64,000 nt of DNA from Candidatus Shapirobacteria bacterium (GTDB lineage: Bacteria > Patescibacteriota > Microgenomatia > UBA12405): positions 14,835-78,834 of the forward strand of contig JBAXAJ010000001.1 in assembly GCA_037142555.1 (NCBI GenBank), written 5' to 3'. This document shows positions 23,021 to 62,229 of this stretch, piece after piece. Below the pieces are notes generated by a model. It had not been told where the DNA came from and did no database searches. It saw only the letters and a program-made list of their open reading frames with translations. Positions within the stretch are counted from its first letter, which is position 1. Every line of letters starts with the position of its first letter. The position numbers and the translations under genes are program-made.

Positions 23021-23401
23021 ATGAAGAAAAAAATATTAATTAGTTTTTTATTTATTTTTATTTTTAATTTATTTATATTTTTAATACCGGTTATCCCTCA
23101 AAAATATTTTTCTACCGGAATTTTGAGAATTGGATTTTATTCAAGTATTTTGTTTGTTTTAATAATAACTATTAAATTTTTGTTTGTGGATTATAGTGAT
23201 GATATTAAAAAAAATTGGTTTGGGGAAATATTTACCAAAGTAGGATTGATATTTTTATTTTTTTTACCATCTTTAATTGATACCTATCAAAAGGATATAA
23301 ATGGGATAGGGATGGCTTTATTAATCCTTTTTATAATAATTTTTTTATTCATTACAATTTTGATAACTAGTTTAAAAATAATTTTCAAAAAAGACAATTA
23401 A
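23021..23401 (+). CDS. Hypothetical small membrane protein in a very AT-rich segment
   Basis: 126 aa with 3-4 predicted TM helices. It is preceded by a 127-nt AT-rich spacer. Confidence 0.4.
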   Translation: MKKKILISFLFIFIFNLFIFLIPVIPQKYFSTGILRIGFYSSILFVLIITIKFLFVDYSDDIKKNWFGEIFTKVGLIFLFFLPSLIDTYQKDINGIGMALLILFIIIFLFITILITSLKIIFKKDN

Positions 23402-26604: not shown

Positions 26605-28227
26605 ATGAGCTCTTTTCTTCTCGAAAAAATAAAAAATTTTACCCAAAGAAAGCAGAGTACCATCCTCTCAGCTTCGCTAGTTTTAGCGGTAACTTTTGGG
26701 ATTTCTGCTCTTCTAGGCTTTTTAAGAAGCCGATTTTTATACGCTCACTTTTTTAATTGTTGTGTTGCCGATCTTGATGTTTATAATGCTGCTTTTCGTC
26801 TTCCTGATCTAATTTTCAAACTTTTAGTCACTGGTGCTCTCTCAGCTTCTTTCATTCCAGTCTATTCTTCTTATCTTCATAAAAACAAAAAAACTGCTGA
26901 CAGAATGGCTTCAAGTGTCATTAATCTTCTTTTAATCATTTTTTCTGTTGCTTCAATCATCGTCATAATTTTTGCTCACCCACTTTCCCAATTTATTGCC
27001 CATGGTTTCACCCCATCACAAGTTGATTTAATGGCTAATTTAACCAGAATTCTTTTAATAGCCCAAATATTTTTCCTAGTTAGTAACTTTTTAACCGGGA
27101 TTCTTCAAGTTAATCAAATATTTATAGTTTCAGCCATTTCACCTATTGTTTACAATATTTTTATAATTCTTGGTATTTTCACTCTAGCTCCAATTTTTGG
27201 AATCTATGGAGTTGTCTATGGTGCAGTAGTTGGTGCCTTTTTCCATTTAGCTATTCAAATTCCATCTATTCGTCGTCAGGGATTTAAATTTTCCTTCATT
27301 ATTAAAACAAAACTAAAAGGAGTTAGAGAAGTTTTCAAATTAATGGTTCCTCGAAGTTTAGCCCTAGGACTAGGTGAAATTGAAAATACTGTCACTCTAT
27401 TTTTTGCCACCACTCTTGCCGCTGGGTCTCTTTCTTTACTTAATCTAGCTGTCCAATTTATGTATTTGCCAAGTCGTATTTTTGGCACCACTATTGGACA
27501 AGCATCTTTACCAATTTTATCGAGTAATATCGCTAAAAACGAACTAGAATCTTTCAAAAAAACTGTCAGTAAAATTATTCTTCAAAGTCTTTATATTGCT
27601 CTTCCTATAACTGTTTTAATTCTAGTCAATCGTCTAGCTATTGTTCGTATCCTTTTTGGTTCTAAAGAATTTCCTTGGGCTGCTACCTTATTAACCGCCA
27701 AAATTTTAGCTTATTTAACTCCAGCCATCGCTTGTCAGGCAGTAATTCAAATTCTAATTCGTGCTTTCTATGCTCTTCATAACACTAAAACTCCATTCAA
27801 AATTTCCTTTATATCTCTTTTTGCGACTGTTGCCACCAGCTATTACTTCATAAATTTCACTAATCTAGGAGTTGTTAGTTTAGCCATTAGTGCTTCAATA
27901 GGTAATTTAGTCCAAATGTTTGGTCTTCTATATTTATTTATTAAAACCGTCCATGGTTTTGACTGGGCCCAAATGTTCAGTAAATTTAATCGAATTTTTC
28001 TTTCTACTTTAATTATGGGTTTTGTTTCTTGGCTAAGCATCAGATTTTTTGATCTTTTTATCCTAGATACCACCAAAACTATTTATCTTATGATTCTTTT
28101 TATTCTTTCCAGTTTAATCGGAATCATAACCTACATTGCCTCATCAAAGCTTCTAAATGTTGACGAATATAAAGATTATTTAAAGTACGGTGTTAAGATA
28201 AAAAACTTTTTCAACAAAAAGAAATAA
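26605..28227 (+). CDS. murJ: Lipid II flippase MurJ (MviN)
   Basis: 540 aa with ~14 TM helices. AFRLPDLIFKLLVTGALSASFIPVYS motif. Confidence 0.85.
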   Translation: MSSFLLEKIKNFTQRKQSTILSASLVLAVTFGISALLGFLRSRFLYAHFFNCCVADLDVYNAAFRLPDLIFKLLVTGALSASFIPVYSSYLHKNKKTADRMASSVINLLLIIFSVASIIVIIFAHPLSQFIAHGFTPSQVDLMANLTRILLIAQIFFLVSNFLTGILQVNQIFIVSAISPIVYNIFIILGIFTLAPIFGIYGVVYGAVVGAFFHLAIQIPSIRRQGFKFSFIIKTKLKGVREVFKLMVPRSLALGLGEIENTVTLFFATTLAAGSLSLLNLAVQFMYLPSRIFGTTIGQASLPILSSNIAKNELESFKKTVSKIILQSLYIALPITVLILVNRLAIVRILFGSKEFPWAATLLTAKILAYLTPAIACQAVIQILIRAFYALHNTKTPFKISFISLFATVATSYYFINFTNLGVVSLAISASIGNLVQMFGLLYLFIKTVHGFDWAQMFSKFNRIFLSTLIMGFVSWLSIRFFDLFILDTTKTIYLMILFILSSLIGIITYIASSKLLNVDEYKDYLKYGVKIKNFFNKKK

Positions 28228-28260: not shown

Positions 28261-28291
28261 GATAGTCATATATACTGAATGTATGACTATC
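28261..28291. repeat. Perfect 10-bp inverted repeat GATAGTCATA-N11-TATGACTATC overlapping the start codon of the downstream gene
   Basis: 28261-28270 and 28282-28291 are exact reverse complements. The right arm contains the ATG at 28283. Candidate operator or start-sequestering hairpin. Confidence 0.5.
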
Positions 28292-28855
28292 AAAAAAGAG
28301 GTCTCTCTTTTGCCGGAATCAGAGAATCCTAATTCACTCAATTCCAGAGTAATCAAATGGCTCACGACTGTGGGTCGAGTAGTCATCATTTTTACCGAAC
28401 TAATCGTTGTCACTGCTTTTGCTTCTCGTTTTTGGTTAGACAGAAGAAATGCCGATTTATCTGAAATTATTCGTCAACAACAAGCAATTTTAAACACTAC
28501 TAAAGATTTTGAAAATCAATATTCTTTTCTTCAACAGAAACTAAAAATTATTAGAGATTTTTACAGCAATGACCCTGCTTATAACACTAAAATTACTTCT
28601 CTAATTTCCAGCACTCCAGATAACATTGTCTATGACAATTTATCTCTTTCTAAAGATGAAACTTTAAATAAAACCGTTGCCTCTATTTCTTTGACAGCTT
28701 ACAAAGAAGATTCCATCGTTGATTTCATAACTAATTTAATGCTTAATCCTGATATCCAAACCGTTAATATTAATAAAATTGAAAAAAAAGCTCAAGAAAA
28801 TAAATATTCAATCAATATTAGTTTAGTGTTCAAAACACCTACTCCAAAGACATGA
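28283..28855 (+). CDS. PilN-like type IV pilus / fimbrial assembly protein (tentative)
   Basis: 190 aa. N-terminal EVSLLPESEN resembles the PilN INLLP motif. It is followed by a single TM helix and an extracytoplasmic domain. Confidence 0.45.
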   Translation: MTIKKEVSLLPESENPNSLNSRVIKWLTTVGRVVIIFTELIVVTAFASRFWLDRRNADLSEIIRQQQAILNTTKDFENQYSFLQQKLKIIRDFYSNDPAYNTKITSLISSTPDNIVYDNLSLSKDETLNKTVASISLTAYKEDSIVDFITNLMLNPDIQTVNINKIEKKAQENKYSINISLVFKTPTPKT

Positions 28856-29487
28856 TCGAATTAAATTCATTCATCCAGATTCAGCAAATCTACAAATACG
28901 TCAGAAAACAAAGAGAAAACCAAAAGTTTTTAAAATATATTGAAATTGCTGCCACTTTTATTTTAATTTCTGTTTTCCTATTTCTTGCGATTAAACCGAC
29001 TGCCACTACAATTTTTTCACTTTTAGGAGACATCAAATCAAAAGAGCTACAAACTAAACAAATGAAAGCAAAAATTGTCAGCATTGTTGCCGCTCAAGAT
29101 TTATATTCTCAAGTCGAAGAAAAATATGATGTGATTGAATCAAGTCTTCCAGACAAACCAAAATATTATCAATCAGCTCTAAATTTTTCTTCTCTTTCTC
29201 AAAAATCAAACACTTCTCTTGACCAGGTAAACTTTAATTTAAGCACTGATGATAATAAAAAATTATCAACTAACATTGACAGTTATTCAGTCAACATAAT
29301 TAGTCAAAGCAACTATAATTCTGCTCTAGAGTTTATTAAAAATATTCTAAGCAACAGAAGACTAGTTGATCTAAAAACTATTCAATTATCAAAACCAGAT
29401 GACAAAATAAGCACTTCTTCAGGTAATCTTAAGCTAAACATTACTGCCAAATTATTTTATTTAAAAGATCAAAATGAAAAGAAATAA
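28852..29487 (+). CDS. PilO-like assembly protein (tentative)
   Basis: 211 aa. Short cytoplasmic N-terminus, one TM helix (IAATFILISVFLFLAI), a coiled-coil and a C-terminal domain. 4-nt overlap with the upstream gene. Confidence 0.4.
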   Translation: MIELNSFIQIQQIYKYVRKQRENQKFLKYIEIAATFILISVFLFLAIKPTATTIFSLLGDIKSKELQTKQMKAKIVSIVAAQDLYSQVEEKYDVIESSLPDKPKYYQSALNFSSLSQKSNTSLDQVNFNLSTDDNKKLSTNIDSYSVNIISQSNYNSALEFIKNILSNRRLVDLKTIQLSKPDDKISTSSGNLKLNITAKLFYLKDQNEKK

Positions 29488-29734
29488 TTTTTCCCTATAT
29501 TTTATATTTATTGCTTTCTTTTCTTTCTTAGCTATTTTTATATCAATTGTCCAAAATAGTTATAAAAATTTAGTTAAACCAGTCGATAAAATTAAAAGTG
29601 AAAAAATAGAACCCCTTAATCTTAATTTAGACACTGAAATTATTTCTCAGATAGAATCCAGAGAGGAAATTTTTGTTGCTCCAACTCCAGAACCAACAGT
29701 CGAACCATTATTAGAAGAAGTTGTCTCACCATGA
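29474..29734 (+). CDS. Small single-pass membrane protein with a Pro/Glu-rich C-terminus
   Basis: 86 aa. One TM helix, then APTPEPTVEPLLEE. Translationally coupled on both sides. Confidence 0.35.
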   Translation: MKRNNFSLYFIFIAFFSFLAIFISIVQNSYKNLVKPVDKIKSEKIEPLNLNLDTEIISQIESREEIFVAPTPEPTVEPLLEEVVSP

Positions 29735-31074
29735 AAAAAGAAAAAAGAATACCAACTATTCTAGGTCTATTTTTACTTTTAGGGAGTATTCTTAGTGGAG
29801 TAGTTTTAAGTAACCAAAAAACTAGCTTTAAATCTAGCGCCAGTGGTGATTGTAATCCAATAAATCCTCAAGTGACTAACATCACCAATACTTCTTTTAA
29901 TGTTTCTTTTATAACTACAGCTAATTGTTTATCTAACATCAACATTGATAATAAAACGATTTCTGATCTTAGATTTATAAATACTGGTCGAAAAGAAAGT
30001 GCCACTAAAGTTCATTATTTTGAAGTTAATAACCTTAAAGAAGACACTAATTATCAATTTTCTTTAATAAATAACGGTCAAAAATTTGAGAGTCAAAACT
30101 ACAAAGGTCAAACCGCTAGAAAACCATCTAATTCTGTTCCAACTTCAAATTTAGCTTGGGGCCGAGTTTTTACTCCAGATCTCAAACCAGCAACTGACGC
30201 AATCGTTTATTTAAACACTGTTGGAGCTTCTCCACTTTCTGCTGTTGTCACTTCAAAAGGTTATTGGAACATTTCTCTTGCTACCAGTTTTAATGAAGCT
30301 AAAAATAATTGGTTCACTCCATCATCAGCCCAAAATGAGGATTTCATTGTTCTTTCTACTGAAAGTGATGCTACTCAAATAACTGGAAACACCTCTAACA
30401 ACAACCCAGTTCCAGACATAATTCTTGGTAAAAATGAGTTTTCTCCAAAACCAGTCACTGATTATGGAAATGAACAATCAGGTTATCTAAATTCAGTTCC
30501 TTCTTTCACCAACTCTGACAAAAGTCTAACTATTAGTAACCCTAAAGAAAATGAAGCTATTTTCACTCTAAAACCAGATTTCTTTGGTTCAGCTCCAGTT
30601 TCAGCAACTCTTGATATCCAGGTCGAATCAGAAAATGTCATTAAAGACCAGGTTAAATCTCAACCAGATGGTTCATGGAATTGGTCTCCACCTAAATCTC
30701 TAGTTCCAGGTGAACACACTATCACTATTACTGCTCTAAACCCAAAAACCAATATTCTAGAAAAAATTACTCGAAAATTTATTGTTGTTGCTGCTGATAA
30801 TAGTAAACCAGCTTTCAGTGCTTCTCAATCTGCTAAGATAACTACCATTCCAACTCCTACAATCACTATGGTTCCAACCATAATCCCAACAACAGCTCCA
30901 ACTCTAGTGCCAACTCTAAAAGCGACTCCAACTATAGAAGAAGAAATTCCGACTTTAAAACCAACAAAAATAAGCACCGCTTCATCTATGCCAGCCACTG
31001 GAGTTGGTTTCCCAACTTTCATTTTGATTGGATTCTCGGCTATCCTGCTGGTTATTTCATATTTTGTATTATAA
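29731..31074 (+). CDS. Cell-surface protein: signal peptide, Fn3-like and Ig/CarbopepD-like domains, Thr/Pro-rich stalk and a C-terminal sorting-signal-like anchor
   Basis: N-terminal signal/TM helix. The C-terminus has a PT-rich linker, then SMPATG followed by a hydrophobic helix (VGFPTFILIGFSAILLVISYFVL), which is LPxTG-like or PGF-CTERM-like. Confidence 0.55.
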   Translation: MKKEKRIPTILGLFLLLGSILSGVVLSNQKTSFKSSASGDCNPINPQVTNITNTSFNVSFITTANCLSNINIDNKTISDLRFINTGRKESATKVHYFEVNNLKEDTNYQFSLINNGQKFESQNYKGQTARKPSNSVPTSNLAWGRVFTPDLKPATDAIVYLNTVGASPLSAVVTSKGYWNISLATSFNEAKNNWFTPSSAQNEDFIVLSTESDATQITGNTSNNNPVPDIILGKNEFSPKPVTDYGNEQSGYLNSVPSFTNSDKSLTISNPKENEAIFTLKPDFFGSAPVSATLDIQVESENVIKDQVKSQPDGSWNWSPPKSLVPGEHTITITALNPKTNILEKITRKFIVVAADNSKPAFSASQSAKITTIPTPTITMVPTIIPTTAPTLVPTLKATPTIEEEIPTLKPTKISTASSMPATGVGFPTFILIGFSAILLVISYFVL

Positions 31075-31080
31075 TAGGTT

Positions 31081-32013
31081 GTGATAAAAATGAGTAAAAA
31101 AATTAAGAGTTACATCCAATCTTTGCGTCCTGTTCAATGGATTAAAAATTTAAATCTATTTGCAGCCGCAATTTTAAACGGTCAATTAACTAATTTTGAA
31201 GTTTTTTCCAAAAGCATTTTTGCTTTCATAGTTTTTTGTCTACTTTCTTCCGCTTCTTATTTAATTAATGACTTAATTGACATTAATAAAGATCGACTCC
31301 ATCCAACTAAAAAGAACAGACCTCTTGCTCATGGTGACATTTCTGAATCAAGTGCAGTTTTTCTAGCCATAACTCTAATTTTCATTGGCCTATCACTATC
31401 AATTTTCATTAATTTTGGCTTCTTTCTTATTTCCATATTATTTATAGTTCTTCAGCTAACCTATTCTTTCCTACTTAAAAAGAAAGCCATTCTCGACATT
31501 ATAACTATTGCTGCCTCATTTATTTTAAGAGCTTATGCCGGTGAAATCGCCACTGGTTACCATCTTCCAGTTTGGATAATGTTAACAGTTATCTTTTTAT
31601 CTCTATTCATTGCTAGTGGTAAAAGAAGAAGTGAACTTTTCAACACTGGTGTCACCACTCGCAGTGCTCTTAAAGGCTATCGTAAAAGCTTACTAAGTTT
31701 TTATACCACCATGTTCGCTGTTTGTACTCTAATCACCTACGCCATGTTTACTTTCTTTGAAGAGTCAGTCACTTTCGCTGGATCTGGTTTTTTACATCAA
31801 TTTATTATAGATAATTTTCCTAATGCTATAAATCGAAAATGGTATATGGTCACTCTTCTCCCAGTGATTTTTGGAATAATGCGTTATGGTCAAGTTATTT
31901 TTGAAATGCAAGAAGGTGAGAGACCTGAGAGGGTTGTTTCTACTGACATTCCACTATTGTTTTCAGTTCTAATTTGGGGCTTAATGATGATAACTATCAT
32001 TTATGTCATCTAA
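31081..32013 (+). CDS. UbiA-family prenyl-phosphate phosphoribosyltransferase, decaprenyl-phosphate 5-phosphoribosyltransferase (DPPR synthase)-like
   Basis: N-terminal LRPVQWIKNLNLFAA, which resembles the RPxQWxKN start of DPPR synthases (Rv3806c type). Asp-rich NDLIDINKDRLHPTKKNRPLA. ~8 TM helices. Confidence 0.65.
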   Translation: MIKMSKKIKSYIQSLRPVQWIKNLNLFAAAILNGQLTNFEVFSKSIFAFIVFCLLSSASYLINDLIDINKDRLHPTKKNRPLAHGDISESSAVFLAITLIFIGLSLSIFINFGFFLISILFIVLQLTYSFLLKKKAILDIITIAASFILRAYAGEIATGYHLPVWIMLTVIFLSLFIASGKRRSELFNTGVTTRSALKGYRKSLLSFYTTMFAVCTLITYAMFTFFEESVTFAGSGFLHQFIIDNFPNAINRKWYMVTLLPVIFGIMRYGQVIFEMQEGERPERVVSTDIPLLFSVLIWGLMMITIIYVI

Positions 32014-33508
32014 AATTTTCAATCTAAAAGTAATCACTTTCAGTCTTCTCGTTTTTCTAATAATTTTCACTCGTTTTATAAAATTAGATTGGGGGAATTC
32101 CTTCTTTTTTAATCCTGATGAGAACAACATGGCTTCTTCCATTTTCCAAATGACTTCTTCTAATTTAAATCCCAATTTTTTTGCCTATGGCCAATTTCCT
32201 TTATATTTAACTTTTTTTACTACTCCAAAACATGATTTTCAAAACATTATTTTAACTCTTCGTTTTTGGTCAGCCACTTTTTCTTGTCTTTCTATTTTAT
32301 TTTTATATTTAATTTCCAAAAATATTTTTAAAGACATTTTTTCTAGACTAGCTTTTATTATTTTATTAATTTTTAATCCAGGTCTAATTCAACTTTCTCA
32401 TTTTGGGACTACTGAATCAATTTTGATATTTGTTTTTATTTTAAATATTTATCTGTCTCAAAAATTTTTAAAAAATAGAAAAATTATTTATATAATTTTA
32501 GCTGCCGTAGTCAGTGGGATAGGTCTAGCTTCTAAAATATCAGCTCTGATTTTAACTGTTCCAATATTTTTAACTTTATTATTTACTTTAATTAAAAATA
32601 AAAAAATAATAAATTTTTTATTAAATACAGTTATATTTGTTGCTTTAACTTTATTTGTTATAACTCTTTTTTCACCATTTAATTTTTTAAACAGTGGGGA
32701 ATTCATTTCTTCAATGAATTATGAAATTTCTGTTGCCACTGGAAACATTAAAGTTTTTTATACTAATCAATTTTTAAATTCTCTCCCATATATTTTCCAA
32801 ATTAAAAATATATTCCCATATACTAATGGGATTTTTGTTTTCATTTTCTCTGGACTTGGTTTAATTTATTTTATTAAAAATAAAAATTATAAAGAATTAA
32901 AGTGGCTTTTAATTTTAATTCCATGTTTAATTTATTTTCTTTATAACGGTCAACTCTATACAAAATGGACTCGTTTTATGTCACCAATTTTTTTCCTTTT
33001 CCCACTTTTAACTGTTTATTTTATTAATCAATTTAAAACTAAATTTATAAAATATTTATTAGTTTTTATTTCTATAATCCCTGGGGTTGTTTTTCTTAAT
33101 CTATATTTCCAACCAGACATCAGGTTAACTGCTTCTAATTGGATTAATAAAAATATTTCTCAAGATTCAAAGATATTAAGTGAAAGTGGCAATGTCATAA
33201 ATATACCTCTAAAAAATAATAATCTTCAAGTTAATAATTTTGATTTTTATAAAAGTGAAAATATAAATAATTTATCAACAGAAATAAATAATAGTAATTA
33301 TATTTTTGTGCCTTCTCGTCGTGTTTTTAAAAATAATTTTCCAGAAACTAAAAAATATTATCAAGATTTGTTTTCCGGTTCTCTAGGCTTTTCCAAAATC
33401 CAAGAATTCAAAACAAACATTGATTTTTTATTAAATTCAGAAAATGCTGAAGAAACTTGGAGTGTTTTCGATCATCCAACTATTAGAATTTTTAAAAAAA
33501 ATGTTTAA
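32003..33508 (+). CDS. GT-C fold membrane glycosyltransferase (GT39/GT83 PMT/ArnT-like)
   Basis: Loop-1 pattern NPDENNMASSIF...GQFPLYLTFF...TLRFWSATFSCLSILFLYLISK. Polytopic with a C-terminal soluble domain. Confidence 0.6.
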   Translation: MSSKIFNLKVITFSLLVFLIIFTRFIKLDWGNSFFFNPDENNMASSIFQMTSSNLNPNFFAYGQFPLYLTFFTTPKHDFQNIILTLRFWSATFSCLSILFLYLISKNIFKDIFSRLAFIILLIFNPGLIQLSHFGTTESILIFVFILNIYLSQKFLKNRKIIYIILAAVVSGIGLASKISALILTVPIFLTLLFTLIKNKKIINFLLNTVIFVALTLFVITLFSPFNFLNSGEFISSMNYEISVATGNIKVFYTNQFLNSLPYIFQIKNIFPYTNGIFVFIFSGLGLIYFIKNKNYKELKWLLILIPCLIYFLYNGQLYTKWTRFMSPIFFLFPLLTVYFINQFKTKFIKYLLVFISIIPGVVFLNLYFQPDIRLTASNWINKNISQDSKILSESGNVINIPLKNNNLQVNNFDFYKSENINNLSTEINNSNYIFVPSRRVFKNNFPETKKYYQDLFSGSLGFSKIQEFKTNIDFLLNSENAEETWSVFDHPTIRIFKKNV

Positions 33509-35231
33509 GAAATTTTGGGACATTAATAAAGAAAAATTTTTACTTCTGTTATTTTTAGTGACAGCCTTCAGTTTGAGGATTTTTAATATTAATTGGGATC
33601 AAGGTCAGCATCTCCACCCAGACGAAAGGTTCATGACCATGGTCTCTTCAGACATCAGATTGCCTCAAAATATTATTCAATATTTTGATACCAACACTTC
33701 ATCTCTAAACCCCACTAACAAAAAATATGACTTTTATGTTTATGGGACAGTTCCTCTTATTGTGACTCGTTTTGTTGCTCAAGTTCTTAATATGACAGAC
33801 TATAATAATATTTTTATAGTCGGTCGAGTCTTGTCTGCAATTTTTGATACCTTAATTATTTTTATTCTCTACAAGATTGGTAAACTTTTAAAACTACAAA
33901 AACGAATCATTTTTATTTCTCTATTTTTCTATTCTTTCGCAATTCTCCCAATTCAACTTTCACACTTTTTCACAGTAGACACTTTCACTGTCTTTTTTTC
34001 TACCCTTAGTGTCTATCTTTTCCTAAGCTTTTTAGAAAAAAGAAAATGGTGGAGGCTAGCTCTTTGTGGTCTAATTTTTGGAATAGCCCTAGCCAGCAAA
34101 ATTTCTATAATTATTACTTTGCCACTATTTTTAATTTATTTAATAATTATTAATTTAAAGAATTTTAGAAAAATACTTTTATATGGATCAATATTTTTAC
34201 TATCAATATTTTTATCTTTCAGAATTTTCCAACCATATGCTTTCAATGGTGTAGTCAATTTTTCTCCAACTTTCATTAAATCAACTTCTATTGCTCACCA
34301 AATGGTCACTGGGGAATATAAATATCCACCAAATATCCAATGGCAAAACACAATTCCAATTATTAATCCATTAATAGACATTTTTATTTTTGCTCTAGGG
34401 CCGATAATTACTCTTTTGAGTTTTTATGGATTTTATATCGCGTTTTTTAAATTTAAATCTAAGAAAAAGTTTCTAGCTTTATTCATAATTCTTTTTTGTG
34501 ATTTTGTTTTTTTCTACCAAGGAATTCAACTAGCTAAATACCTAAGATACTTCTATCCAATTTTTCCATTTTTAGTTTTGTTTGCTGCAATTGGATTTAA
34601 CGCTTTAATAAAATTTAAAAAAATCCAATTAATTTTATTAATTTTGATTGTTCTAAATACTCTATTTTTTATTAATATTTATCTTCAAACCAATTCTCGA
34701 ATTTCTGCTTCTAATTGGATTTGTGAAAATTTTAAAAAAGGGTCAACAATTACCAGTGAGACTTGGGACGATTCTTTGCCTTTAAATTTAAACTCTGGAT
34801 GTAACTCAATAAACTATAAATCTCTGCCTTTAGATCTATATGCTTCTGATAAACCTCAAAAATGGCAGAAACTAGATCAACAATTTAAAGATGCTAATTA
34901 TCTAATTTTATCTTCAAATCGCCTCTGGGCTTCAATCCCTAATTCATCTCAACAATATCCAATAACTGCTCAATTTTATAAAGATTTATTTGACAATAAA
35001 CTAGCTTTTTCTAAAATTAAAACTTTTTATTCTTATCCAGGTCTAAGTCTTCCAATCAACGGTTGTTTTTTAATTGGTCTAAAAAACTATCCTTCTAATC
35101 AAAATAATAGTTCATTTTTTGAATTTGATAAAAATTGTCAAAATCCAGGTTTCTATTTTCGTGATGACATTTCTCAAGAGTCATTCACTGTTTATGATCA
35201 TCCTCAAGTTATAATTTTCAGTCGTAATTAA
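33501..35231 (+). CDS. GT-C fold membrane glycosyltransferase-like protein
   Basis: HPDERFMTMV...GTVPLIVTRF...GRVLSAIFDTLIIFILYKIG. ~12 TM helices and a C-terminal domain. The start ATG at 33501 overlaps the upstream stop (ATGTTTAA). The track ORF from 33444 is an extension. Confidence 0.55.
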   Translation: MFKKFWDINKEKFLLLLFLVTAFSLRIFNINWDQGQHLHPDERFMTMVSSDIRLPQNIIQYFDTNTSSLNPTNKKYDFYVYGTVPLIVTRFVAQVLNMTDYNNIFIVGRVLSAIFDTLIIFILYKIGKLLKLQKRIIFISLFFYSFAILPIQLSHFFTVDTFTVFFSTLSVYLFLSFLEKRKWWRLALCGLIFGIALASKISIIITLPLFLIYLIIINLKNFRKILLYGSIFLLSIFLSFRIFQPYAFNGVVNFSPTFIKSTSIAHQMVTGEYKYPPNIQWQNTIPIINPLIDIFIFALGPIITLLSFYGFYIAFFKFKSKKKFLALFIILFCDFVFFYQGIQLAKYLRYFYPIFPFLVLFAAIGFNALIKFKKIQLILLILIVLNTLFFINIYLQTNSRISASNWICENFKKGSTITSETWDDSLPLNLNSGCNSINYKSLPLDLYASDKPQKWQKLDQQFKDANYLILSSNRLWASIPNSSQQYPITAQFYKDLFDNKLAFSKIKTFYSYPGLSLPINGCFLIGLKNYPSNQNNSSFFEFDKNCQNPGFYFRDDISQESFTVYDHPQVIIFSRN

Positions 35232-35265
35232 TTAATTTGGCTAAATAATTGTTACAATATTTAAA

Positions 35266-35844
35266 ATGTTAGCTCACTTAAAAAAAACTTTTCTCTTTTG
35301 GCAACCACGCTTTGATTTTTTAAAATGGCTTGAATCAACCAAGGCAGGTCAATATGTAATGATTTTTTTGAACTATATTATTTGGTTCTTTTTTATTTTT
35401 ATTTCTTTTATTTTAGTTCATAAAAACAGCAACATTTTTTGGTCACTTTTAGTTATTACTGTAATAGCCGAACTCATTGAAAGATATATCAAAACCAATT
35501 TTTTTTGGTGTCGTCCAATGTTCATTAAAAAAGATGAAGTCCCAAAAGGTTTAGTAAAAAGTTGGTACAAAACAGGCAGTTTTCCTTCTGGTCACACCAT
35601 GAAATCTGCTTATTTTCTTTTATTTTTAATTCAGAATCAAGTTTTTTCTCCGACTGTTTTCTTAATTATTGTAGTTCCATTATTATTTTTTAGAGTCTTA
35701 GTTGGTTTCCATTATCCAATTGATATTTTAGGCGGTATTTTAATTGGTTTTATTCTTTGGTTTTTTATTAAAGATATAGTTTTCCCTGATTTCATGGTTA
35801 ATTCTATTAAGGTAATTTTTGATTATATTTATTCAATTTTTTAG
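35266..35844 (+). CDS. PAP2-superfamily lipid phosphate phosphatase
   Basis: KxxxxxxRP (KTNFFWCRPMF), PSGH (SFPSGHTM) and a downstream HxxxD-region (FHYPIDILGG). 6 TM helices. Confidence 0.7.
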   Translation: MLAHLKKTFLFWQPRFDFLKWLESTKAGQYVMIFLNYIIWFFFIFISFILVHKNSNIFWSLLVITVIAELIERYIKTNFFWCRPMFIKKDEVPKGLVKSWYKTGSFPSGHTMKSAYFLLFLIQNQVFSPTVFLIIVVPLLFFRVLVGFHYPIDILGGILIGFILWFFIKDIVFPDFMVNSIKVIFDYIYSIF

Positions 35845-35846
35845 AA

Positions 35847-37901
35847 ATGTTTTCCGATTTAAAGTTCATCATTTTTTGGTGGTTAATTATATTTCTATTA
35901 GGAACTATTTCTTTACCTCTAATTTTTGCTTTGTTTAAAAAATTTTGGGACAAAGGATACATTTTTTCTAAGATAATTTCCATATCACTAATAACTTATT
36001 TAATTTTTATTTTAGGGGTAATTAAACTTTTACCTTTCACTAATCTTTCTCTATTTATCATAATTCTATTTTTAATATTAATTAATGTTTTTTACTTTAT
36101 TAAATTTAAAAAGTTAGCCGAATTTCTAGAAGTTATCAAATCAAAATATAAAGTATTTATTTTTCAAGAATTATTATTTTTAGTTATTTTAGTCAGTTGG
36201 TCTCTAGTTCGTGGCTTTAACCCAGACATTGAAGGTCTAGAAAAATTTATGGATTGGGGATTCATAAATTCAGCTCTAAGGAGTACTTACATGCCGCCAA
36301 TTGATATGTGGTTTTCTGGATCTCCAATAAATTATTATTATTTTGGTCATCTAATTTTTGCTGTTTTAACAAAACTTTCTTCAATCACTTCTGCCATAAC
36401 TTACAATCTTTCTATTGCCACAGTTTGTGCCCTGACTTTTGTTAGTGCTTTTTCTCTTTCTTCAAATTTAGTCTATATTTTTTCTAAAAAAACTTCCAAA
36501 CTAAAAACAATAATTTTTTGTGGCCTAATTTCCGCTCTGCTTTTAACTTTTGGCGGGAACCTTCACCCACTTTATAAAGCTATCACCAAACCAGAACCTC
36601 TTCCTAAATTTGTTTCAACTTATTGGTATCCAGACGCCACTCGTTTTATCGGTTTTGACCCTGATACTCAAGACAAAACTATTCATGAATTCCCAAGTTA
36701 TAGTTTTGTGGTCGCTGATCTTCATGGTCATATGAACGACATCCCTGTAATTTTATTTTTTTGCGCCATGATTTTTTCTCTAAGTCTTTCTATTTTTAAG
36801 AAAATTTTTAATTGGAAATTAATCATTAGTTCAGGTCTAGTTCTATCAATTGCCTACATGACCAATGCTTGGGATTTTGCTATTTATGGGATTCTATTCG
36901 CTATTTTTATTTTCATTTCGAATCTTTCTAAAACTAATTTTTTAGAAGCTTTCAATAAAACTGTTTTAAATGGTCTTCTGGTAATAATTTTTTGGTATCT
37001 CTTTTCACTCCCTTTTTCTCTTAACTTTACACCCATGGCTCAAGGCCTTCGTTTCTCAGATGTCCACACGCCTTTCTATCAATTATCTATTTTATATGGT
37101 GGTTTTTGGTTAATTTGTCTACCTTTCCTTTTATATTTAATTTATTCAATAGTTAAAAAACTAAAAATTAAAAACTCAGATTTTTTTGTTTTAAGTTTAA
37201 TAGTCACAGCTACTATTCTAGTTATCATTCCAGAAATTTTCTACATTAAAGACATTTACATAAATGAATATCGTCGAGCTAACACTATGTTCAAGTTAGT
37301 TTATGAGGCTTTCATTATGTATTCAATTTCGGCTGGATATATTTTATTCCGACTGACTCGATCAAAGAATTTAATTTTTCCTAATCTCTATAAATTAATC
37401 TTTTTCCTTATTTTTATAGTTCACATGAGCTATCCATATTTTTCTATTAAATCTTTTTATACTTTTAAATCTTATAAAGGTCTATGGGGTCTAAACTATT
37501 TGAAAGAATCATATCCAGACAATTTAAAAGCTATCAATTGGATTAATCAAAATATTAAAGGGCAACCAGTTATGTTAGAAGCAACAGGTGATAGTTACAC
37601 CACTTTTAATCAGATATCTGTTGCCACAGGTCTGCCAACCATAGAAGGCTGGTTAGTCCATGAATGGTTGTGGCGTGGTGGTTATGATAAACCTGGTGCT
37701 CGCCAAGAAGAAGTCAAAAAAGTTTATGAAGACGAAAATTTAGATGAAGTCAAAACTATTCTTCAAAAACATAAAGTTGAATATATCTTTGTCGGTGCCA
37801 AAGAACATGAAAAATACCCAAATTTAGACGATAAAAGATTTCAAAAAATTGGTGGCGAAATTATCTTTCAATCAAGTAATACTAAAATCTATAAAATTTA
37901 A
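35847..37901 (+). CDS. YYY-domain membrane protein (Chlor_Arch_YYY / DUF2298), putative GT-C-like glycosyltransferase
   Basis: 684 aa. Many TM helices. SPINYYYFGHLIFAVL motif. C-terminal ~150-aa soluble domain. Confidence 0.5.
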   Translation: MFSDLKFIIFWWLIIFLLGTISLPLIFALFKKFWDKGYIFSKIISISLITYLIFILGVIKLLPFTNLSLFIIILFLILINVFYFIKFKKLAEFLEVIKSKYKVFIFQELLFLVILVSWSLVRGFNPDIEGLEKFMDWGFINSALRSTYMPPIDMWFSGSPINYYYFGHLIFAVLTKLSSITSAITYNLSIATVCALTFVSAFSLSSNLVYIFSKKTSKLKTIIFCGLISALLLTFGGNLHPLYKAITKPEPLPKFVSTYWYPDATRFIGFDPDTQDKTIHEFPSYSFVVADLHGHMNDIPVILFFCAMIFSLSLSIFKKIFNWKLIISSGLVLSIAYMTNAWDFAIYGILFAIFIFISNLSKTNFLEAFNKTVLNGLLVIIFWYLFSLPFSLNFTPMAQGLRFSDVHTPFYQLSILYGGFWLICLPFLLYLIYSIVKKLKIKNSDFFVLSLIVTATILVIIPEIFYIKDIYINEYRRANTMFKLVYEAFIMYSISAGYILFRLTRSKNLIFPNLYKLIFFLIFIVHMSYPYFSIKSFYTFKSYKGLWGLNYLKESYPDNLKAINWINQNIKGQPVMLEATGDSYTTFNQISVATGLPTIEGWLVHEWLWRGGYDKPGARQEEVKKVYEDENLDEVKTILQKHKVEYIFVGAKEHEKYPNLDDKRFQKIGGEIIFQSSNTKIYKI

Positions 37902-37919: not shown

Positions 37920-39824
37920 ATGACGAATATTCTAGAAGGACTAAACCCGCAACAACTTGAGGCCGTGACCTACACTGGCTCACCACTCCTACTATTAGCC
38001 GGAGCTGGTTCTGGAAAAACTCGAGTCTTAACTCATCGAGCGGCATATTTTATTGAAAAAAAATTAGCCAAACCTTCTGAAATTCTATTACTGACTTTTA
38101 CTAACAAAGCCGCTGAGGAAATGAAGAAACGAATGCAAAAATTATTATCAAATGTACAGGCAATTAATGAATCGCCCCTCCAAAAAAATAATATTTTTGC
38201 TGGGACTTTTCATTCTTTTTGTTGTCGAGTTTTAAGAGCCGATGGTCAAAATATTGGCGTTTCCCCTAATTTTGCAATTTATGACTCCAACGATCAGGAA
38301 AACATGGTTAAAAGAATTTTAATTGATATGGGCTTAACAGCTAAAGAATTTAAACCATCAAGTTTGCTCTACTACATTGAAGGAGCCAAAAATACTTTTC
38401 AAACTCCAAAAGACATGCAACTTCAAAGCCATGGTTTTTGGCAAGAATATGCCGCCAAAGTTTATGCTAATTATCAAAAAAAATTAGCTGAATTTCATGC
38501 TCTAGATTTCAATGATCTTCTTTTTAAAACAGTTGAACTTTTCATGGAGAATCCAGAAGTTTTAGCTAAATATCAAGAAATCTATAAATTCATTATGGTT
38601 GATGAGTATCAAGACACTAACCAAATTCAATATCTTCTAACCAAATTATTAGCCAATAAATATAAACAAATAACTGCTGTCGGTGATGCTGCTCAAGCTA
38701 TTTATGGTTGGCGAGGAGCTGATTATCGTAATTTAATTAGTTTCACTACTGATTTCAAAAATGTAAAAGTAATTAATCTTGAAGAAAACTATCGTTCCAC
38801 CAACATTATTCTAGATGCAGCTAATTCAATTATTTCTAAAAATAATTCTCATCCAGTTTTAAAACTATTCACTAAAAAAGTTTCTGAAGATAAAATAAAA
38901 ATTTTTGAGGCCGAATCAGAAGTTTCAGAAGCCGATTATGTCACCGATAAAATAAAATTTATTAATGATAATTTAAGAATTCCTTTAAGAAATATAGCCG
39001 TTCTTTATAGGATGAACGCTCAATCTCGAGTTATTGAAGAAGCCTTTTTAAGACAATCATTGCCATATGTTCTACTAGGGGGAACTCGTTTTTATGAAAG
39101 AGCTGAAATCAAAGATATTCTAGCCATGCTTCGTTTCACCAATGACCAAGCCGATAAATTATCAGAAGAACGAGTTGGTAAAGCAATCGGTAAGAGGCGG
39201 CTAGTCACTTTTAAAGAACATCTCAATAATCTCGATATTAAAGACATGACTTCTCTAGAAATTTTAGAATCATTAGTCGTTAATTCTGATTATTTAAAGA
39301 AATTCGATCCTAAAGATGAAGAAGACCAAAAACGAATTGAAAACATTAAAGAGTTAAAATCAGTTGCCACTGCTTATCCAAAGCTAAGTGATTTTCTAGA
39401 AAATATTGCTCTCGTTCAACAAGAATATTCTCAACAAGAAAAAAATAAAAAGAAAGAAAATAAAGATGGAGTCAGATTAATGACTCTTCATGGAGCTAAA
39501 GGTCTAGAATTTGAAGTTGTCTTTTTAGTCGGTTTTGAAGAGGGAATTTTGCCTCATTCTCGAAGTCTAATTGAAGAATCTGAAATTGAAGAAGAGCGTC
39601 GTCTTTGTTATGTTGGTGTCACTCGAGCCAAAGATTATCTTCACATTTCTTATGCCAATAAACGCCTATTTTTTGGTAAAAGCAGTTTAAATGAGCCAAG
39701 CCGATTTTTAGCAGACATCCCATCAGAATTAGTTGAATTCGAAGAATCCATAACCAGAGACTACCGCCGACCAAAGAAATCAAAAGACGATGATGATTTT
39801 ATTTATGATTCAGATATATATTAA
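37920..39824 (+). CDS. pcrA: ATP-dependent DNA helicase PcrA/UvrD (SF1)
   Basis: GAGSGKT Walker A. DEYQDTN. motif III VGDAAQAIYGWRGA. YRS. GLEF. VGVTRA. Confidence 0.85.
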   Translation: MTNILEGLNPQQLEAVTYTGSPLLLLAGAGSGKTRVLTHRAAYFIEKKLAKPSEILLLTFTNKAAEEMKKRMQKLLSNVQAINESPLQKNNIFAGTFHSFCCRVLRADGQNIGVSPNFAIYDSNDQENMVKRILIDMGLTAKEFKPSSLLYYIEGAKNTFQTPKDMQLQSHGFWQEYAAKVYANYQKKLAEFHALDFNDLLFKTVELFMENPEVLAKYQEIYKFIMVDEYQDTNQIQYLLTKLLANKYKQITAVGDAAQAIYGWRGADYRNLISFTTDFKNVKVINLEENYRSTNIILDAANSIISKNNSHPVLKLFTKKVSEDKIKIFEAESEVSEADYVTDKIKFINDNLRIPLRNIAVLYRMNAQSRVIEEAFLRQSLPYVLLGGTRFYERAEIKDILAMLRFTNDQADKLSEERVGKAIGKRRLVTFKEHLNNLDIKDMTSLEILESLVVNSDYLKKFDPKDEEDQKRIENIKELKSVATAYPKLSDFLENIALVQQEYSQQEKNKKKENKDGVRLMTLHGAKGLEFEVVFLVGFEEGILPHSRSLIEESEIEEERRLCYVGVTRAKDYLHISYANKRLFFGKSSLNEPSRFLADIPSELVEFEESITRDYRRPKKSKDDDDFIYDSDIY

Positions 39825-44058: not shown

Positions 44059-44685
44059 CTAAACAGCTCTTATTTTCACTAAATCAGTCAATTCATTTAA
44101 ATTTCTAATTGTTTTAATTCCATTAATTTCTTCATTTGTTATTCTATTAATCCAGATAATATTAAATCGGCCGTGAGTTTTTAATTCTTCAACAACTTTT
44201 CTTTTATCGTCAATTATTGTTACTCCATCTGGTATTTTTTTTATGAAATCAGAATGTAACTTATTCCTGTCTATATAGACAGAATTTTTATCAAAAAACT
44301 TTTCAGTCCCAGAAGATTCAATTTTTGTTTTTTGAAAATCATCAAATCCTTGTGAATATACTCCTAATTTAAATTCTTCTTTTAAGTGATTCAAAACAGG
44401 AATAGTTTCAGGAAACAAAGATTTAGAATAAATACCGAATCTGTCCGAAGTAAAATCGTTTAAATCAATTTTTTTATCAAACTTTTGTTCCAAATAAGTC
44501 ACAAAATCATCTATTCTAAAATCACCAGATCTATCTAAACTATCAATATACACTTTTTTTGTTTCTAACATCTCTTCATCACAAACACCATAAACATCTG
44601 CTAAATTATGACTTAGGTTTTTTATAAATTTTTCTTTACTAAATAAGGTATCGTCCCAATCGAACAAAATTAATTTTTCTTCCAT
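44059..44685 (-). CDS. HAD-like hydrolase
   Basis: N-terminal ILFDWDDTLF (DxDxT motif I). 208 aa. Confidence 0.5.
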   Translation of the reverse strand: MEEKLILFDWDDTLFSKEKFIKNLSHNLADVYGVCDEEMLETKKVYIDSLDRSGDFRIDDFVTYLEQKFDKKIDLNDFTSDRFGIYSKSLFPETIPVLNHLKEEFKLGVYSQGFDDFQKTKIESSGTEKFFDKNSVYIDRNKLHSDFIKKIPDGVTIIDDKRKVVEELKTHGRFNIIWINRITNEEINGIKTIRNLNELTDLVKIRAV

Positions 44686-48300: not shown

Positions 48301-48564
48301 TTTCGTCAATTAGTTTTTTACAAAATTCTTTCAGACCTCGACTTAACTTTTAAATATGTTATTAATAAAGGGACAATTGATTTTGTCCAAAAAAGTAAAA
48401 GTCGAAATAAGTTTATTCAAAACTCTTTTGAATTTTCCCAAACTGACATCGACTCTTTAAAAAATTTAATTAGAGAAATCTATAAAAAAATTATTAATTT
48501 AGAATTTAATCAAATAGGTGAAGACTGTCAAGATCGAGACCATCTTCATTCACTTTTTAAATAA
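45367..48564 (+). CDS. AddA-like ATP-dependent helicase-nuclease: UvrD-type SF1 helicase with a C-terminal RecB-family PD-(D/E)xK nuclease domain
   Basis: AGAGTGKT. DEYQDTN. VGDDDQSIFRFQGA. YRS. GLEF. C-terminal nuclease motifs GKIDEI, VIDFKTG and QLVFYK. GTG start. Confidence 0.75.
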   Translation: MDNKSFLSEYQKLNPEQKLAVDTIEGPVMVIAGAGTGKTQTIALRIANILIQTQTPPQNILCLTFTDTGTIAMRERLIKIIGSEAYKVRIHTFHSFCNEVIQNNPEYFIFAKNIKSIEEVERVELIQKLISSLNNGSLLKPWGDSFFYQRDIISAIQSLKKEGISSENLLSLINNQISFLDKNKDLISKFLSIKFSKNIAAELLPVFEEILSNSQKDSQEVYNHLLSLKILFETSGFDVGAAKNPIVNFKNEIKNFFESLTKDSQKQLELHSLYSQYQEELKTNGLYDFEDMILFVLKAFKKNPELLLEYQEKYQYILVDEYQDTNSAQNEIIDLLGKYYENPNLFVVGDDDQSIFRFQGASIENVYSFYKKYNPLLVVLKNNYRSHRLILASSESVIKNNKNRITNFIDEIDKSLESKVDFDATPINLFRSPGLNEENYFIATKIKSLLEKGIDPQQIAVLYRNNNDVFDLVEHLKNLNIKYQLGIDKNILENKYISQLIFLLEFILNSEKNDLLYKVLASNFLKIPAFDLFKLTHFAYKEKIKLVSLVFVSKNFSKIEKDLSEIGAKRIRNFVRRITFAKKWLENLSTDRFFNKVIRRFKYLDFVLTSNNLELINFLNTFYSEFKRLALEKDFSLRDFLNYLQTIKENDLTLTAPEISGESIKSIRLMTVHKSKGLEFEHVFLYKCADKKWGNVTNQNKLKLPLGILKLQSALLENERASEDERRLFYVALTRAKKQIYISYSTKSESGRDQLPSMFISEIDPEIIEEVVDSSINSESALKNIFPKTLPKLDIKSDFQEYLVDYLKSKYKFNITHLNSYLRCPFCFYHKTILRIPGVRDKHSSLGSAVHDALSFLLETLRLENRLISSKDLINRFAEFIKKEKLSKEDESESLKKGEEILNEYYINYESSFDKNNLTDFDFAPNHVYLDEIPITGKIDEIKISDQKINGKEIAEVIDFKTGNPDGKYKELSKDGDYFRQLVFYKILSDLDLTFKYVINKGTIDFVQKSKSRNKFIQNSFEFSQTDIDSLKNLIREIYKKIINLEFNQIGEDCQDRDHLHSLFK

Positions 48565-62188: not shown

Positions 62189-62229
62189 GTGCCTTTTTTC
62201 TATATGTTAAAATCACTTGTACGTTGAAA

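Follow-up and report, generated by a model that had tools for sequence, protein, structure and literature searches.

The question raised by this locus is whether a member of the candidate phyla radiation (CPR) makes a lipid-linked pentose and spends it on the outer face of the cell. We analyzed a 64-kb window, part of a 206.8-kb contig from a metagenome-assembled genome (MAG) of Candidatus Shapirobacteria (CPR/Patescibacteria, Microgenomates), in which five adjacent genes (the block, positions 31081-37901) encode a UbiA-family enzyme, two PMT_2-type GT-C glycosyltransferases (GT-C1 and GT-C2), a PAP2 lipid phosphatase, and a DUF2298 protein. There is almost no experimental knowledge of the envelope glycans of CPR/Patescibacteria, though these episymbionts rely on surface contact with their hosts. 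An earlier reading of the bare DNA (the original prediction) had taken the five genes as a pathway that provides lipid-linked ribose, or another pentose, to GT-C transferases. On balance, we think it probable that the block is a Microgenomates surface-glycan module built around a lipid-linked pentofuranose donor. The predicted synthase stands by homology and the pathway is largely supported; the equivalence that had been drawn between the PAP2 protein and mycobacterial Rv3807c is favored by gene context and predicted topology, and not by specific sequence similarity.

The five co-directional open reading frames (ORFs) described earlier are all present on the + strand (Table 1), either overlapping or no more than 34 bp apart. 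UbiA and GT-C1 overlap by 11 bp and GT-C1 and GT-C2 by 8 bp (counted from the 33501 start of the latter), and gaps of 34 bp and 2 bp precede PAP2 and DUF2298, respectively. The motifs that had been quoted are likewise found: LRPVQWIKNL at residues 15 to 24 of UbiA, KxxxxxxRP and PSGH in PAP2, and a triple tyrosine (Y163-Y164-Y165) in DUF2298. Family calls for all five genes exceed curated thresholds. In the curated family libraries, UbiA matched PF01040 with 96.5 bits; GT-C1 and GT-C2 matched PMT_2 with 43.3 and 50.0 bits (cutoff, 26.1), GT-C1 also matching PMT (31.5 bits); PAP2 scored 54.7 bits against its family (cutoff, 27.2); and the last protein scored 323.5 bits against DUF2298 and 481.9 bits against TIGR03662 (chlor_Arch_YYY; cutoff, 300.25). 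The corresponding NCBI protein names are decaprenyl-phosphate phosphoribosyltransferase, glycosyltransferase family 39 protein, and DUF2298 domain-containing protein.

Table 1. Coordinates of the five block genes, the junction within the block, and the gene directly upstream
Feature	Position	Strand	Description
Possible acceptor	29731-31074	+	447-aa secreted fn3/Big_13 surface protein, directly 5' of UbiA; weak fn3/Big_13 matches
UbiA	31081-32013	+	GTG start, 310 aa; public annotation (P0001) starts at M4, position 31090 (307 aa), which is the probable true start
GT-C1	32003-33508	+	501 aa; PMT_2-type GT-C glycosyltransferase
GT-C2	33444-35231	+	595 aa; public annotation (P0390) starts at M20, position 33501 (576 aa), probably the true start
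GT-C2/PAP2 junction	35232-35265	.	34 bp, empty in the window
PAP2	35266-35844	+	192 aa; short five- to six-helix PAP2 lipid phosphatase
DUF2298/chlor_Arch_YYY	35847-37901	+	684 aa

What, then, does the first gene encode? We assign its product as a predicted polyprenyl-phosphate phosphoribosyltransferase of the Mycobacterium tuberculosis Rv3806c type that depends on phosphoribosyl pyrophosphate (PRPP). This assignment is strong because the protein passes the cutoff of the corresponding curated model, because Rv3806c is its nearest solved relative, and because the residues that contact PRPP are kept. It scored 212.7 bits against NF008978 (decaprenyl-phosphate phosphoribosyltransferase, or DPPR synthase; curated equivalog cutoff, 207) and fell below the cutoffs of the sister models NF008977 (183 versus 234) and NF008976 (174 versus 474), while generic UbiA, MenA, heme-O, and chlorophyll-synthase models gave 15 to 60 bits against cutoffs of 180 to 470. 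The resemblance to DPPR synthase that had been proposed is thus borne out by the comparison of models, and no grouping with menaquinone or heme-O enzymes was found. In a PDB search, Rv3806c (8j8j) was matched with an E value of 3.7e-41 (36% identity over 220 aa) and an ordinary UbiA structure (4tq3) with one of 4.9e-10. The motif N63-D64-x2-D67-x3-D71 is present. Ten of the 12 PRPP-contact residues listed from the Rv3806c cryo-EM structure (PMC10994848) are kept, namely, R16, K22, Y60, N63, D67, K77, R80, Q125, Y128, and K133 (in Rv3806c, R22, K28, Y70, N73, D77, K87, R90, Q135, Y138, and K143, respectively); in the Mg2+/pyrophosphate motif and K/R cluster, D64 and D71 align with D74 and D81. 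The phosphoribose contacts K28, Y70, and Q135 are not conserved in ordinary UbiA enzymes (PMC10994848). The two changed contacts are Y157 of Rv3806c, which is F147 here (the same change is reported in some mycobacteria [PMC10994848]), and K208, which is S195 in a gapped region. R16, K22, Y60, N63, D64, D67, D71, and R80 are invariant across 70 diverse homologues.

It is extremely improbable that the ORF instead encodes an aromatic or heme prenyltransferase (MenA, UbiA, or CtaB type) with no role in glycans. Membership in the Pfam UbiA family would be consistent with such an enzyme, as would the label "4-hydroxybenzoate polyprenyltransferase" that some public pipelines attach to relatives. However, the MenA/UbiA/CtaB-type models gave 27 to 43 bits against cutoffs of 180 to 390 where the DPPR-synthase model passes, and no quinone or heme genes were found nearby in the Pfam annotation of the window ORFs. 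Together with the phosphoribose-specific residues, the model scores effectively refute this identity.

Do the other four genes belong with the synthase? In the relatives L001 to L005 the order runs MurJ, PilN-like, PilO-like, small protein, surface protein, UbiA, GT-C1, GT-C2, PAP2, DUF2298, UvrD, FemAB, and GatCAB. Because the flanks (MurJ, the PilN/O-like genes, the surface protein, UvrD, FemAB, and GatCAB) are as syntenic as the block in the relatives sampled, gene order within Microgenomates is weak evidence by itself, and loci were therefore collected again with DUF2298 as the anchor. This gave 80 metagenomic loci at 52 to 74% identity to DUF2298. UbiA was present in all 36 loci with at least 6 kb of upstream sequence, and the order UbiA-GTC-GTC-PAP2-DUF2298 was kept in 36 of the 36 reaching far enough upstream, so that the proposed grouping of the five genes, and with it the co-location of UbiA and PAP2, holds in every relative with enough sequence. 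PAP2 lies directly 5' of DUF2298 in 63 of 64 relatives; in the remaining one (L146), no PAP2 was detected there and a GT4 gene (3584 upstream) is found instead, reflecting either loss or a failure of detection. Median identity to the window across relatives was 70% for UbiA, 70% for UvrD, 68% for MurJ, 60% for DUF2298, 53% for PAP2, 52% for GT-C1, and 39% for GT-C2, the most variable gene of the block. This gradient fits a donor synthase that is as conserved as housekeeping genes and transferases that are diversifying.

The GT-C2/PAP2 junction proved to be a site of variable cargo. Both of its flanks were visible in about 50 relatives, of which about 13 have nothing at the junction (56 bp or less), about 25 have a GT4 gene on the - strand, and 8 have an SDR epimerase; further cargo consists of FkbM or SAM methyltransferases, DUF362, and extra PMT_2 GT-Cs. 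Cargo within the block is exclusively glycan chemistry, and none was seen between PAP2 and DUF2298 among the relatives (segment gap, 74 bp or less). Two kinds of SDR can be told apart. Type B (L153, L158, L163, and L200) resembles a nucleotide-sugar dehydratase or epimerase and travels with GT4. Type A adjoins PAP2 in four relatives (L142, L157, L162, and L186); it is 60 to 65% identical to an epimerase from a Clostridia locus (L080) with the order GT4, UbiA, HAD phosphatase, and epimerase, 51 to 54% identical to the UbiA-adjoining epimerase of a Rhodobacterales locus (L069), and about 40% identical to those of Actinobacteria. Among curated families, type A comes nearest to the HpnA branch, which is lipid associated, and not to GalE. 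That the block handles a lipid-linked pentose is best indicated by the presence inside it, beside PAP2, of an epimerase associated with synthases of the Rv3806c type (PPPRS).

The PAP2 protein carries an intact set of motifs (C1, K76-x6-R83-P84; C2, P107-S-G-H110; C3, R143-x5-H149-x3-D153), as had been noted in part; C3 begins with FR rather than SR, and all three are conserved in 70 orthologues. The gene lies 3.2 kb downstream of UbiA in the same co-directional block, and its product aligns end to end with short actinobacterial UbiA-adjacent PAP2 proteins, sharing their length and helix layout. Specific orthology to Rv3807c, the partner named in the original prediction, was not demonstrated by the profile check. 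A profile built from 12 actinobacterial UbiA-adjacent PAP2 proteins gave 29.7 bits, covering only C2 to C3, which is no better than the models for PgpB (28.8), undecaprenyl-diphosphatase (27.2), and SepP (27.0), and no better than the match of the protein to PgpB structures. In the 70 orthologues, the N terminus, C1 motif, and C1-C2 loop together hold a median of 12 lysines and arginines, versus 1 on the opposite loops, and because of this bias the positive-inside rule predicts a cytoplasm-facing active site. Carrier-lipid phosphatases of the PgpB/BcrC type contrast with such an arrangement. In the CPR clusters, moreover, PAP2 takes the slot that a HAD phosphatase holds beside the same epimerase in L080. 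On the basis of its context and predicted topology, we propose PAP2 as a polyprenyl-P-ribose-5-phosphate 5'-phosphatase, the functional counterpart of Rv3807c or of the PRP domain of the HAD type.

GT-C1 and GT-C2 are paralogous PMT_2-type proteins. GT-C1 has the acidic motif NPD39E40N, with D39-E40 following the first transmembrane (TM) segment in a nearly invariant acidic alignment column; GT-C2 has HPD60E61R, in which H-P-D-E-R is invariant, and a C-terminal alpha/beta domain. PDB sequence searches with DUF2298 and GT-C2 gave no match, and structure prediction was therefore used for these two. The AlphaFold2 (AF2) model of GT-C2 (pLDDT, 90.7; pTM, 0.91) matched GT-C enzymes in 28 of 28 Foldseek hits to the PDB at an E value of 1e-3 or lower, including STT3/PglB/AglB (about 1e-8), ArnT, ALG9, DPY19, Pmt4, and AftD, with no preference for a donor class. 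DUF2298 aligned with the PMT_2-type GT-C profile in hhalign (probability, 94.3%; E = 1e-7), and its AF2 model (pLDDT, 81; pTM, 0.87) matched GT-Cs in all nine Foldseek hits at an E value of 2.3e-4 or lower, the best non-GT-C match having an E value no lower than 0.19. These hits include DPY19 (5.6e-6), AglB (7.2e-6), STT3 (9.6e-6), AftA (1.6e-5), and ArnT (1.4e-4), and the top TM-score (0.46 to 0.52) was to mycobacterial AftA. D35 of DUF2298, in the first loop after TM1, is invariant. A GT-C fold for all three large membrane proteins is thus supported by these models and profile comparisons, as the original prediction had anticipated for DUF2298 too. Their catalysis and donor are matters of inference. 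We found no published function for DUF2298/TIGR03662/PF10060 in the searchable literature. TIGR03662/DUF2298 proteins of Archaea and Chloroflexi are encoded beside PMT-like TIGR03663 proteins, as TIGRFAMs descriptions have it; the locus studied here differs in that its GT-Cs are not TIGR03663 members and in that PPPRS and PAP2 do not figure in that description. Membership in TIGR03663, the Agl23 family (cutoff, 126.25), was rejected for GT-C1 (18.0 bits), GT-C2 (20.8 bits), and a fourth GT-C (33.2 bits). The last, a PMT_2-type protein with Asp-Glu after TM1, is encoded at 8811-10127 (- strand) beside a polysaccharide deacetylase (10137-10985, - strand), and the two genes may form another module for envelope glycans, 20 kb away from the cluster.

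Which pentose would such transferases receive? Profiles built from UbiA-adjacent homologues of DprE1 (n = 34) and DprE2 (n = 26), and of the SDR epimerase and PRP-type HAD, matched none of the ORFs in the 64-kb window, even at an E value of 10 or lower, and Pfam annotation of the remaining window ORFs gave no epimerase. Nor was DprE1 found within 10 kb on either side of the cluster in the 80 relatives, among which there was one weak DprE2-like SDR match. The lack of DprE1 and DprE2 that had been pointed out earlier thus persists under profile searches and extends, for DprE1, to relatives. Two generic HAD proteins of the window (12217-12810 and 44059-44685) are similar to families of nucleotidases or sugar phosphatases. 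UbiA is the sole polyprenyl-P-sugar synthase found in the window, which has no GtrB/DPM-like GT2. PRPP is used in this cell, as indicated by a pyrF that passes its cutoff and a pyrE-like phosphoribosyltransferase. Since the window holds no DprE1, DprE2, or other epimerase, the simplest prediction is that the donor is polyprenyl-P-ribofuranose.

Taken together, these findings suggest the following scheme. UbiA would move ribose-5-phosphate from cytoplasmic PRPP to polyprenyl phosphate, a step strongly supported by homology, yielding polyprenyl-P-beta-D-ribofuranose-5-phosphate. PAP2, its active site predicted to face the cytoplasm, would then strip the 5'-phosphate to give polyprenyl-P-ribofuranose, as context and predicted topology suggest. 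With no epimerase in the cluster or window, the donor would stay ribose; in relatives, the SDR epimerase at the junction is predicted to yield another pentose, much as Citrobacter youngae O2 differs from O1. The lipid-linked sugar would next be flipped outward, candidates being one of the GT-C-fold proteins (for which Agl23 and TfpW are precedents) or the upstream MurJ-family protein. Finally, GT-C1, GT-C2, and DUF2298, whose fold is the better-founded part of this step and whose substrates are presumed, would act on the outer face, where a wall polymer or Ser/Thr-rich proteins of the surface or associated with pili would receive pentofuranosyl residues.

Several observations weigh against this scheme. 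Besides the synteny of the flanks, the lack of specific similarity between PAP2 and Rv3807c outside the family motifs, and the heuristic nature of the charge argument for PAP2 topology, PAP2 is coupled most tightly to DUF2298, not to UbiA; DUF2298 stands beside UbiA in none of 116 8-kb blocks from outside Microgenomates; a distant UbiA paralogue occurs in a different context in other Microgenomates (L035, L048, and L067); and the analysis covered 64 kb, so that an epimerase, a flippase, or prs may lie elsewhere in the genome. It may accordingly be asked whether the genes are neighbors by inherited order rather than members of one pathway, with the GT-Cs and DUF2298 using other donors, the product of UbiA feeding something else, and PAP2, as an outward-facing BcrC/PgpB-type phosphatase, recycling carrier lipid released by an OST-like or ligase-like DUF2298. 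The whole MurJ-to-GatCAB region is syntenic and tightly packed, and spacing therefore says little. The near-equal scores of PAP2 against PgpB, undecaprenyl-diphosphatase, SepP, and Rv3807c-type models would suit such a recycling role, as would its constant place beside DUF2298 (cargo is always inserted upstream of PAP2), the inclusion among the DUF2298 fold matches of AglB/STT3, which use pyrophosphate-linked donors, and the lack of BacA/UppP in the Pfam annotation of the window. We nonetheless regard this as fairly unlikely. PPPRS-associated epimerases sit inside the block directly beside PAP2, UbiA has related PMT_2 GT-Cs next to it in five phyla besides this one (Acidobacteriota, Anaerolineae, Desulfobacterota, Gammaproteobacteria, and Saccharibacteria), the window has no second polyprenyl-P-sugar synthase, and the charge distribution predicts a cytoplasmic PAP2 active site in all 70 orthologues. 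Furthermore, the sole known use of the PPPRS product is as a glycosyl donor precursor (PMC10994848, PMC11127046).

Two other explanations would leave the pathway in place and alter one part of it. No GtrA/SMR or dedicated MATE flippase is recognizable in the block, and a GT-C-fold protein (DUF2298 or GT-C1 being the most plausible) might be a flippase for the lipid-linked pentose rather than a transferase. The archaeal PMT-like protein Agl23 flips lipid-linked sugars in vitro (PMC11182771), TfpW has been proposed to combine flippase and transferase (bioRxiv 10.1101/2020.04.19.049825), and GT-C1, GT-C2, and the fourth GT-C do show weak TIGR03663 matches. Yet all of those scores are far under the cutoff, the catalytic DE dipeptide is retained in GT-C1 and GT-C2, as is the invariant first-loop Asp in DUF2298, and the nearest MOP-superfamily protein (26605-28227), 3 kb upstream, may serve, though it passes the MurJ equivalog cutoff (251.6 versus 235.55); we hold a flippase role for a GT-C-fold protein to be unlikely. 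Quite unlikely, in our view, is a different sugar made by the same pathway, whereby DprE1/DprE2 or an SDR like Citrobacter ORF13, encoded beyond the window, would act as the epimerase and lead to polyprenyl-P-arabinofuranose or -xylofuranose. An epimerase accompanies many UbiA loci in other taxa (see below), eight Microgenomates relatives have an SDR epimerase within the cluster, and 64 kb of this genome was covered. Against this, no homologue was detected in the window at a permissive threshold, no DprE1 was found within 10 kb of the cluster in 80 relatives, and the epimerases of relatives sit inside it, at the very junction that has no insert here (34 bp). Pathway genes tend to cluster in the small genomes of CPR, which also counts against a distant epimerase.

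The preferred reading, a module built around lipid-linked pentofuranose, can be set beside three systems in which such a donor is established, namely, those of mycobacteria, Pseudomonas, and Citrobacter; the donor concept itself is unchanged by our findings. As in mycobacteria, the locus combines a PRPP-dependent UbiA whose catalytic residues are the same, a small PAP2 of matching helix and motif layout, and several GT-C consumers, one of which (DUF2298) has its top TM-score to AftA. It differs in that the window lacks DprE1/DprE2, so that arabinose is not predicted, and a GtrA-like Rv3789; in having PMT_2 GT-Cs and DUF2298 instead of GT53/GT85/GT89 Emb/Aft enzymes; in the want of a specific orthology signal for PAP2; and in that no mycolic-acid or arabinogalactan genes are in view in the CPR host. 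The C. youngae O1 and O2 loci are three-component systems for pentofuranose side chains. In O1, the UbiA-type synthase and a HAD phosphatase form one fused protein (ORF15, PPPRS-PRP) that makes undecaprenyl-P-ribofuranose from PRPP, a MATE protein (ORF14) is the predicted flippase, and a GT136 GT-C (ORF12) adds alpha-ribofuranose in the periplasm; O2 differs solely by the SDR epimerase ORF13, which leads to xylofuranose (PMC11127046). DprE1/E2 homologues go with arabinofuranose systems, and epimerase-free ribofuranose systems were established in 2024 (PMC11127046). The Microgenomates locus would resemble these in the direct use of PRPP-derived polyprenyl-P-ribofuranose by extracytoplasmic GT-C transfer and in the diversification of the pentose by presence or absence of an SDR epimerase among close relatives; if our assignments are right, the distribution of the type A epimerase would exactly parallel the O1/O2 dichotomy. 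Unlike Citrobacter, it has a membrane PAP2 in place of a fused or separate HAD PRP (the PRP-type HAD profile being empty in the window), no dedicated MATE flippase in the block, and three GT-C-fold proteins instead of one, and it is a core lineage locus in a monoderm-type host without O antigen rather than a serotype-specific add-on.

In Pseudomonas aeruginosa/paraeruginosa PA7/Pa5196, the type IV pilin undergoes O-arabinosylation by a set of proteins that comprises homologues of Rv3807c (PsPA7_6245), Rv3806c (6246), DprE1, and DprE2, a GtrA-like protein (6247), and the GT-C TfpW (bioRxiv 10.1101/2020.04.19.049825). Our locus shares with it the trio of UbiA, PAP2-type phosphatase, and GT-C outside Actinobacteria and, with respect to a Ser/Thr-rich protein acceptor, a position directly 3' of PilN/PilO-like genes and of a Ser/Thr/Pro-rich surface protein. 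It differs in the absence of DprE1/E2 and a GtrA-like protein and of an adjacent pilin gene or PilM, and the link to pili is positional only. A TfpW-like role in pilin glycosylation, with PilN/PilO barely above threshold, is for these reasons no more than a positional hint. CPR, PMT_2-type consumers, and DUF2298 go unmentioned in the Citrobacter and Pseudomonas papers (PMC11127046, bioRxiv 10.1101/2020.04.19.049825), and no paper on this cluster in CPR was found in the searchable literature. The novelty that had been claimed thus appears to stand for CPR and falls for bacteria outside Actinobacteria at large, given the Pseudomonas and Citrobacter precedents. The variant seen here joins a PAP2, known from mycobacteria and Pseudomonas, to the lack of an epimerase known from Citrobacter O1; its consumers would be two PMT_2 GT-Cs and a DUF2298 GT-C, no flippase is recognizable, and the locus belongs to the highly conserved core of a CPR lineage.

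The UbiA family itself is widespread. An exhaustive search yielded 1,261 clusters of representatives at 50% identity related to UbiA at an E value of 1e-30 or lower, and 8,758 at 1e-10 or lower. A scan that took one genome for each GTDB species and looked for degenerate back-translated forms of the invariant motif Y-x2-N-D-x2-D-x3-D-x2-H-x2-K-x2-R-P returned at least 120 loci, and all 120 of those listed are true family members. They come from Actinobacteria, Chloroflexota, Alpha-, Beta-, Gamma-, and Deltaproteobacteria, Bacteroidota, Planctomycetota, Acidobacteriota, Clostridia, Negativicutes, and Melainabacteria-like cyanobacteria; from archaea (Methanosarcinales, Woesearchaeota, and Iainarchaeum); and from CPR (Shapiro-, Woese-, Gottesman-, Roizman-, Sacchari-, Peri-, and Andersenbacteria). 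Because the loci are spread over so many phyla, occurrence outside Actinobacteria, which the original prediction had presented as unusual, is ordinary for this enzyme. These loci were viewed as fixed 8-kb blocks, so that neighbor counts are lower bounds, and their neighboring ORFs were grouped by clustering. The neighbors include DprE1-like (33 loci) and DprE2-like (27 loci) proteins, GalE-like SDR epimerases (15 loci), PAP2 (12 loci, mostly in Actinobacteria [Mycobacteriales and Streptomyces] and including L077, labeled Clostridia), PRP-type HAD phosphatases (11 loci), and LPG-synthase-like "flippase" domain proteins (11 loci); an epimerase lies inside the 8-kb view in 42 of the 120. Iterative profiles showed that PMT_2-type GT-Cs related to GT-C1/GT-C2 adjoin UbiA in other phyla, as in Pyrinomonadaceae (L031), Anaerolineaceae (L041), Saccharibacteria (L109), and Gottesmanbacteria (L035), and, together with DprE proteins, in Desulfonema (L039, DprE1) and Thioalkalivibrio (L019, DprE1, DprE2, and HAD).

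A few of these loci deserve separate mention. The distant UbiA paralogue of Gottesmanbacteria (L035, 3-5938) and Woesebacteria (L048, 4971-8000), with E values of about 1e-62 to 1e-71 against the window protein, has as neighbors a WecA/MraY-like polyprenyl-phosphate sugar-phosphate transferase, a small protein of two to three TM segments, a PMT_2-like GT-C, and GT2 genes, and would represent a second, differently organized pentose-linked glycan locus in Microgenomates. In Roizmanbacteria (L067), the UbiA gene is solitary and adjoins recA and recX. A MAG labeled as an uncultured gammaproteobacterium (L084) carries a CPR-like UbiA (E = 8e-73), and the Clostridia-labeled L077 carries the order GlfT2, PAP2, and UbiA that is typical of Actinobacteria; both are probably misbinned contigs.

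If the scheme is broadly right, it offers a testable prediction, that of a ribofuranose-containing surface glycan made from PRPP via a lipid carrier, at a locus whose conservation across Shapirobacteria and Woesebacteria matches that of housekeeping genes. It would also place the uncharacterized DUF2298/YYY family in a functional context for the first time and assign it a GT-C fold, and it indicates a single hot spot of glycan diversification, the GT-C2/PAP2 junction. One far-reaching, and in our estimation rather unlikely, possibility is that the locus builds a previously unknown ribofuranose envelope glycan, either a "ribofuranan" wall polymer or dense O-pentosylation of stalked proteins of the surface or of pili, polymerized or attached by the three GT-Cs. 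Under this proposal, DUF2298 would found a new family of pentofuranosyltransferases (or combined transferase/flippases), PAP2 would represent an inward-facing clade dedicated to lipid-P-ribose-5-P, and exchange of epimerase and GT4 genes at the one junction would drive strain-level surface diversity in bacteria whose way of life is attachment to host cells.

With regard to a possible acceptor, the surface protein encoded directly upstream of UbiA (Table 1) has a Thr/Pro-rich stalk (45 to 53% Ser/Thr/Pro over residues 351 to 410) and ends in "SSMPATG" and a hydrophobic segment, without a basic tail, resembling a sortase-type sorting signal. It is syntenic with the cluster in 27 relatives, and it is plausible, albeit speculative, that it is a target of O-glycosylation. 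The stretch between MurJ and the block (28283-31074) encodes, in addition to this protein, PilN-like and PilO-like proteins (just above Pfam cutoffs) and an 86-aa single-TM protein without a family; the set is syntenic with the block in 25 to 27 relatives and is without a PilM or pilin gene.

Elsewhere in the window, an Rfam search gave no match, and promoter and terminator scans stayed near shuffled expectation (82 promoter-like and 12 terminator-like sites, versus 67.5 ± 7.4 and 6.1 ± 2.4 expected, respectively, in AT-rich DNA of 25 to 35% GC) and did not delimit transcription units; the top promoter-like site (34990-35017, just 5' of PAP2) was given no weight. Four ORFs encoding 126 to 339 aa (23021-23401, 61359-62147, 62224-62634, and 62758-63777) had no Pfam match, and the NCBIfam scan also gave none for 61359-62147 and 62758-63777. 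A pyruvate formate-lyase-like glycyl radical enzyme (673 bits) is encoded at 311-2506 on the - strand, with no activase gene noticed among the ORFs scanned. A 445-aa ORF (5747-7084) fuses signal peptidase I (Peptidase_S26) to a CAP/cysteine-rich secretory protein domain. Finally, two UvrD-family helicases are encoded within 10 kb of each other (37920-39824 and 45367-48564), the second being fused to a PD-(D/E)XK nuclease domain in an AddA-like arrangement.

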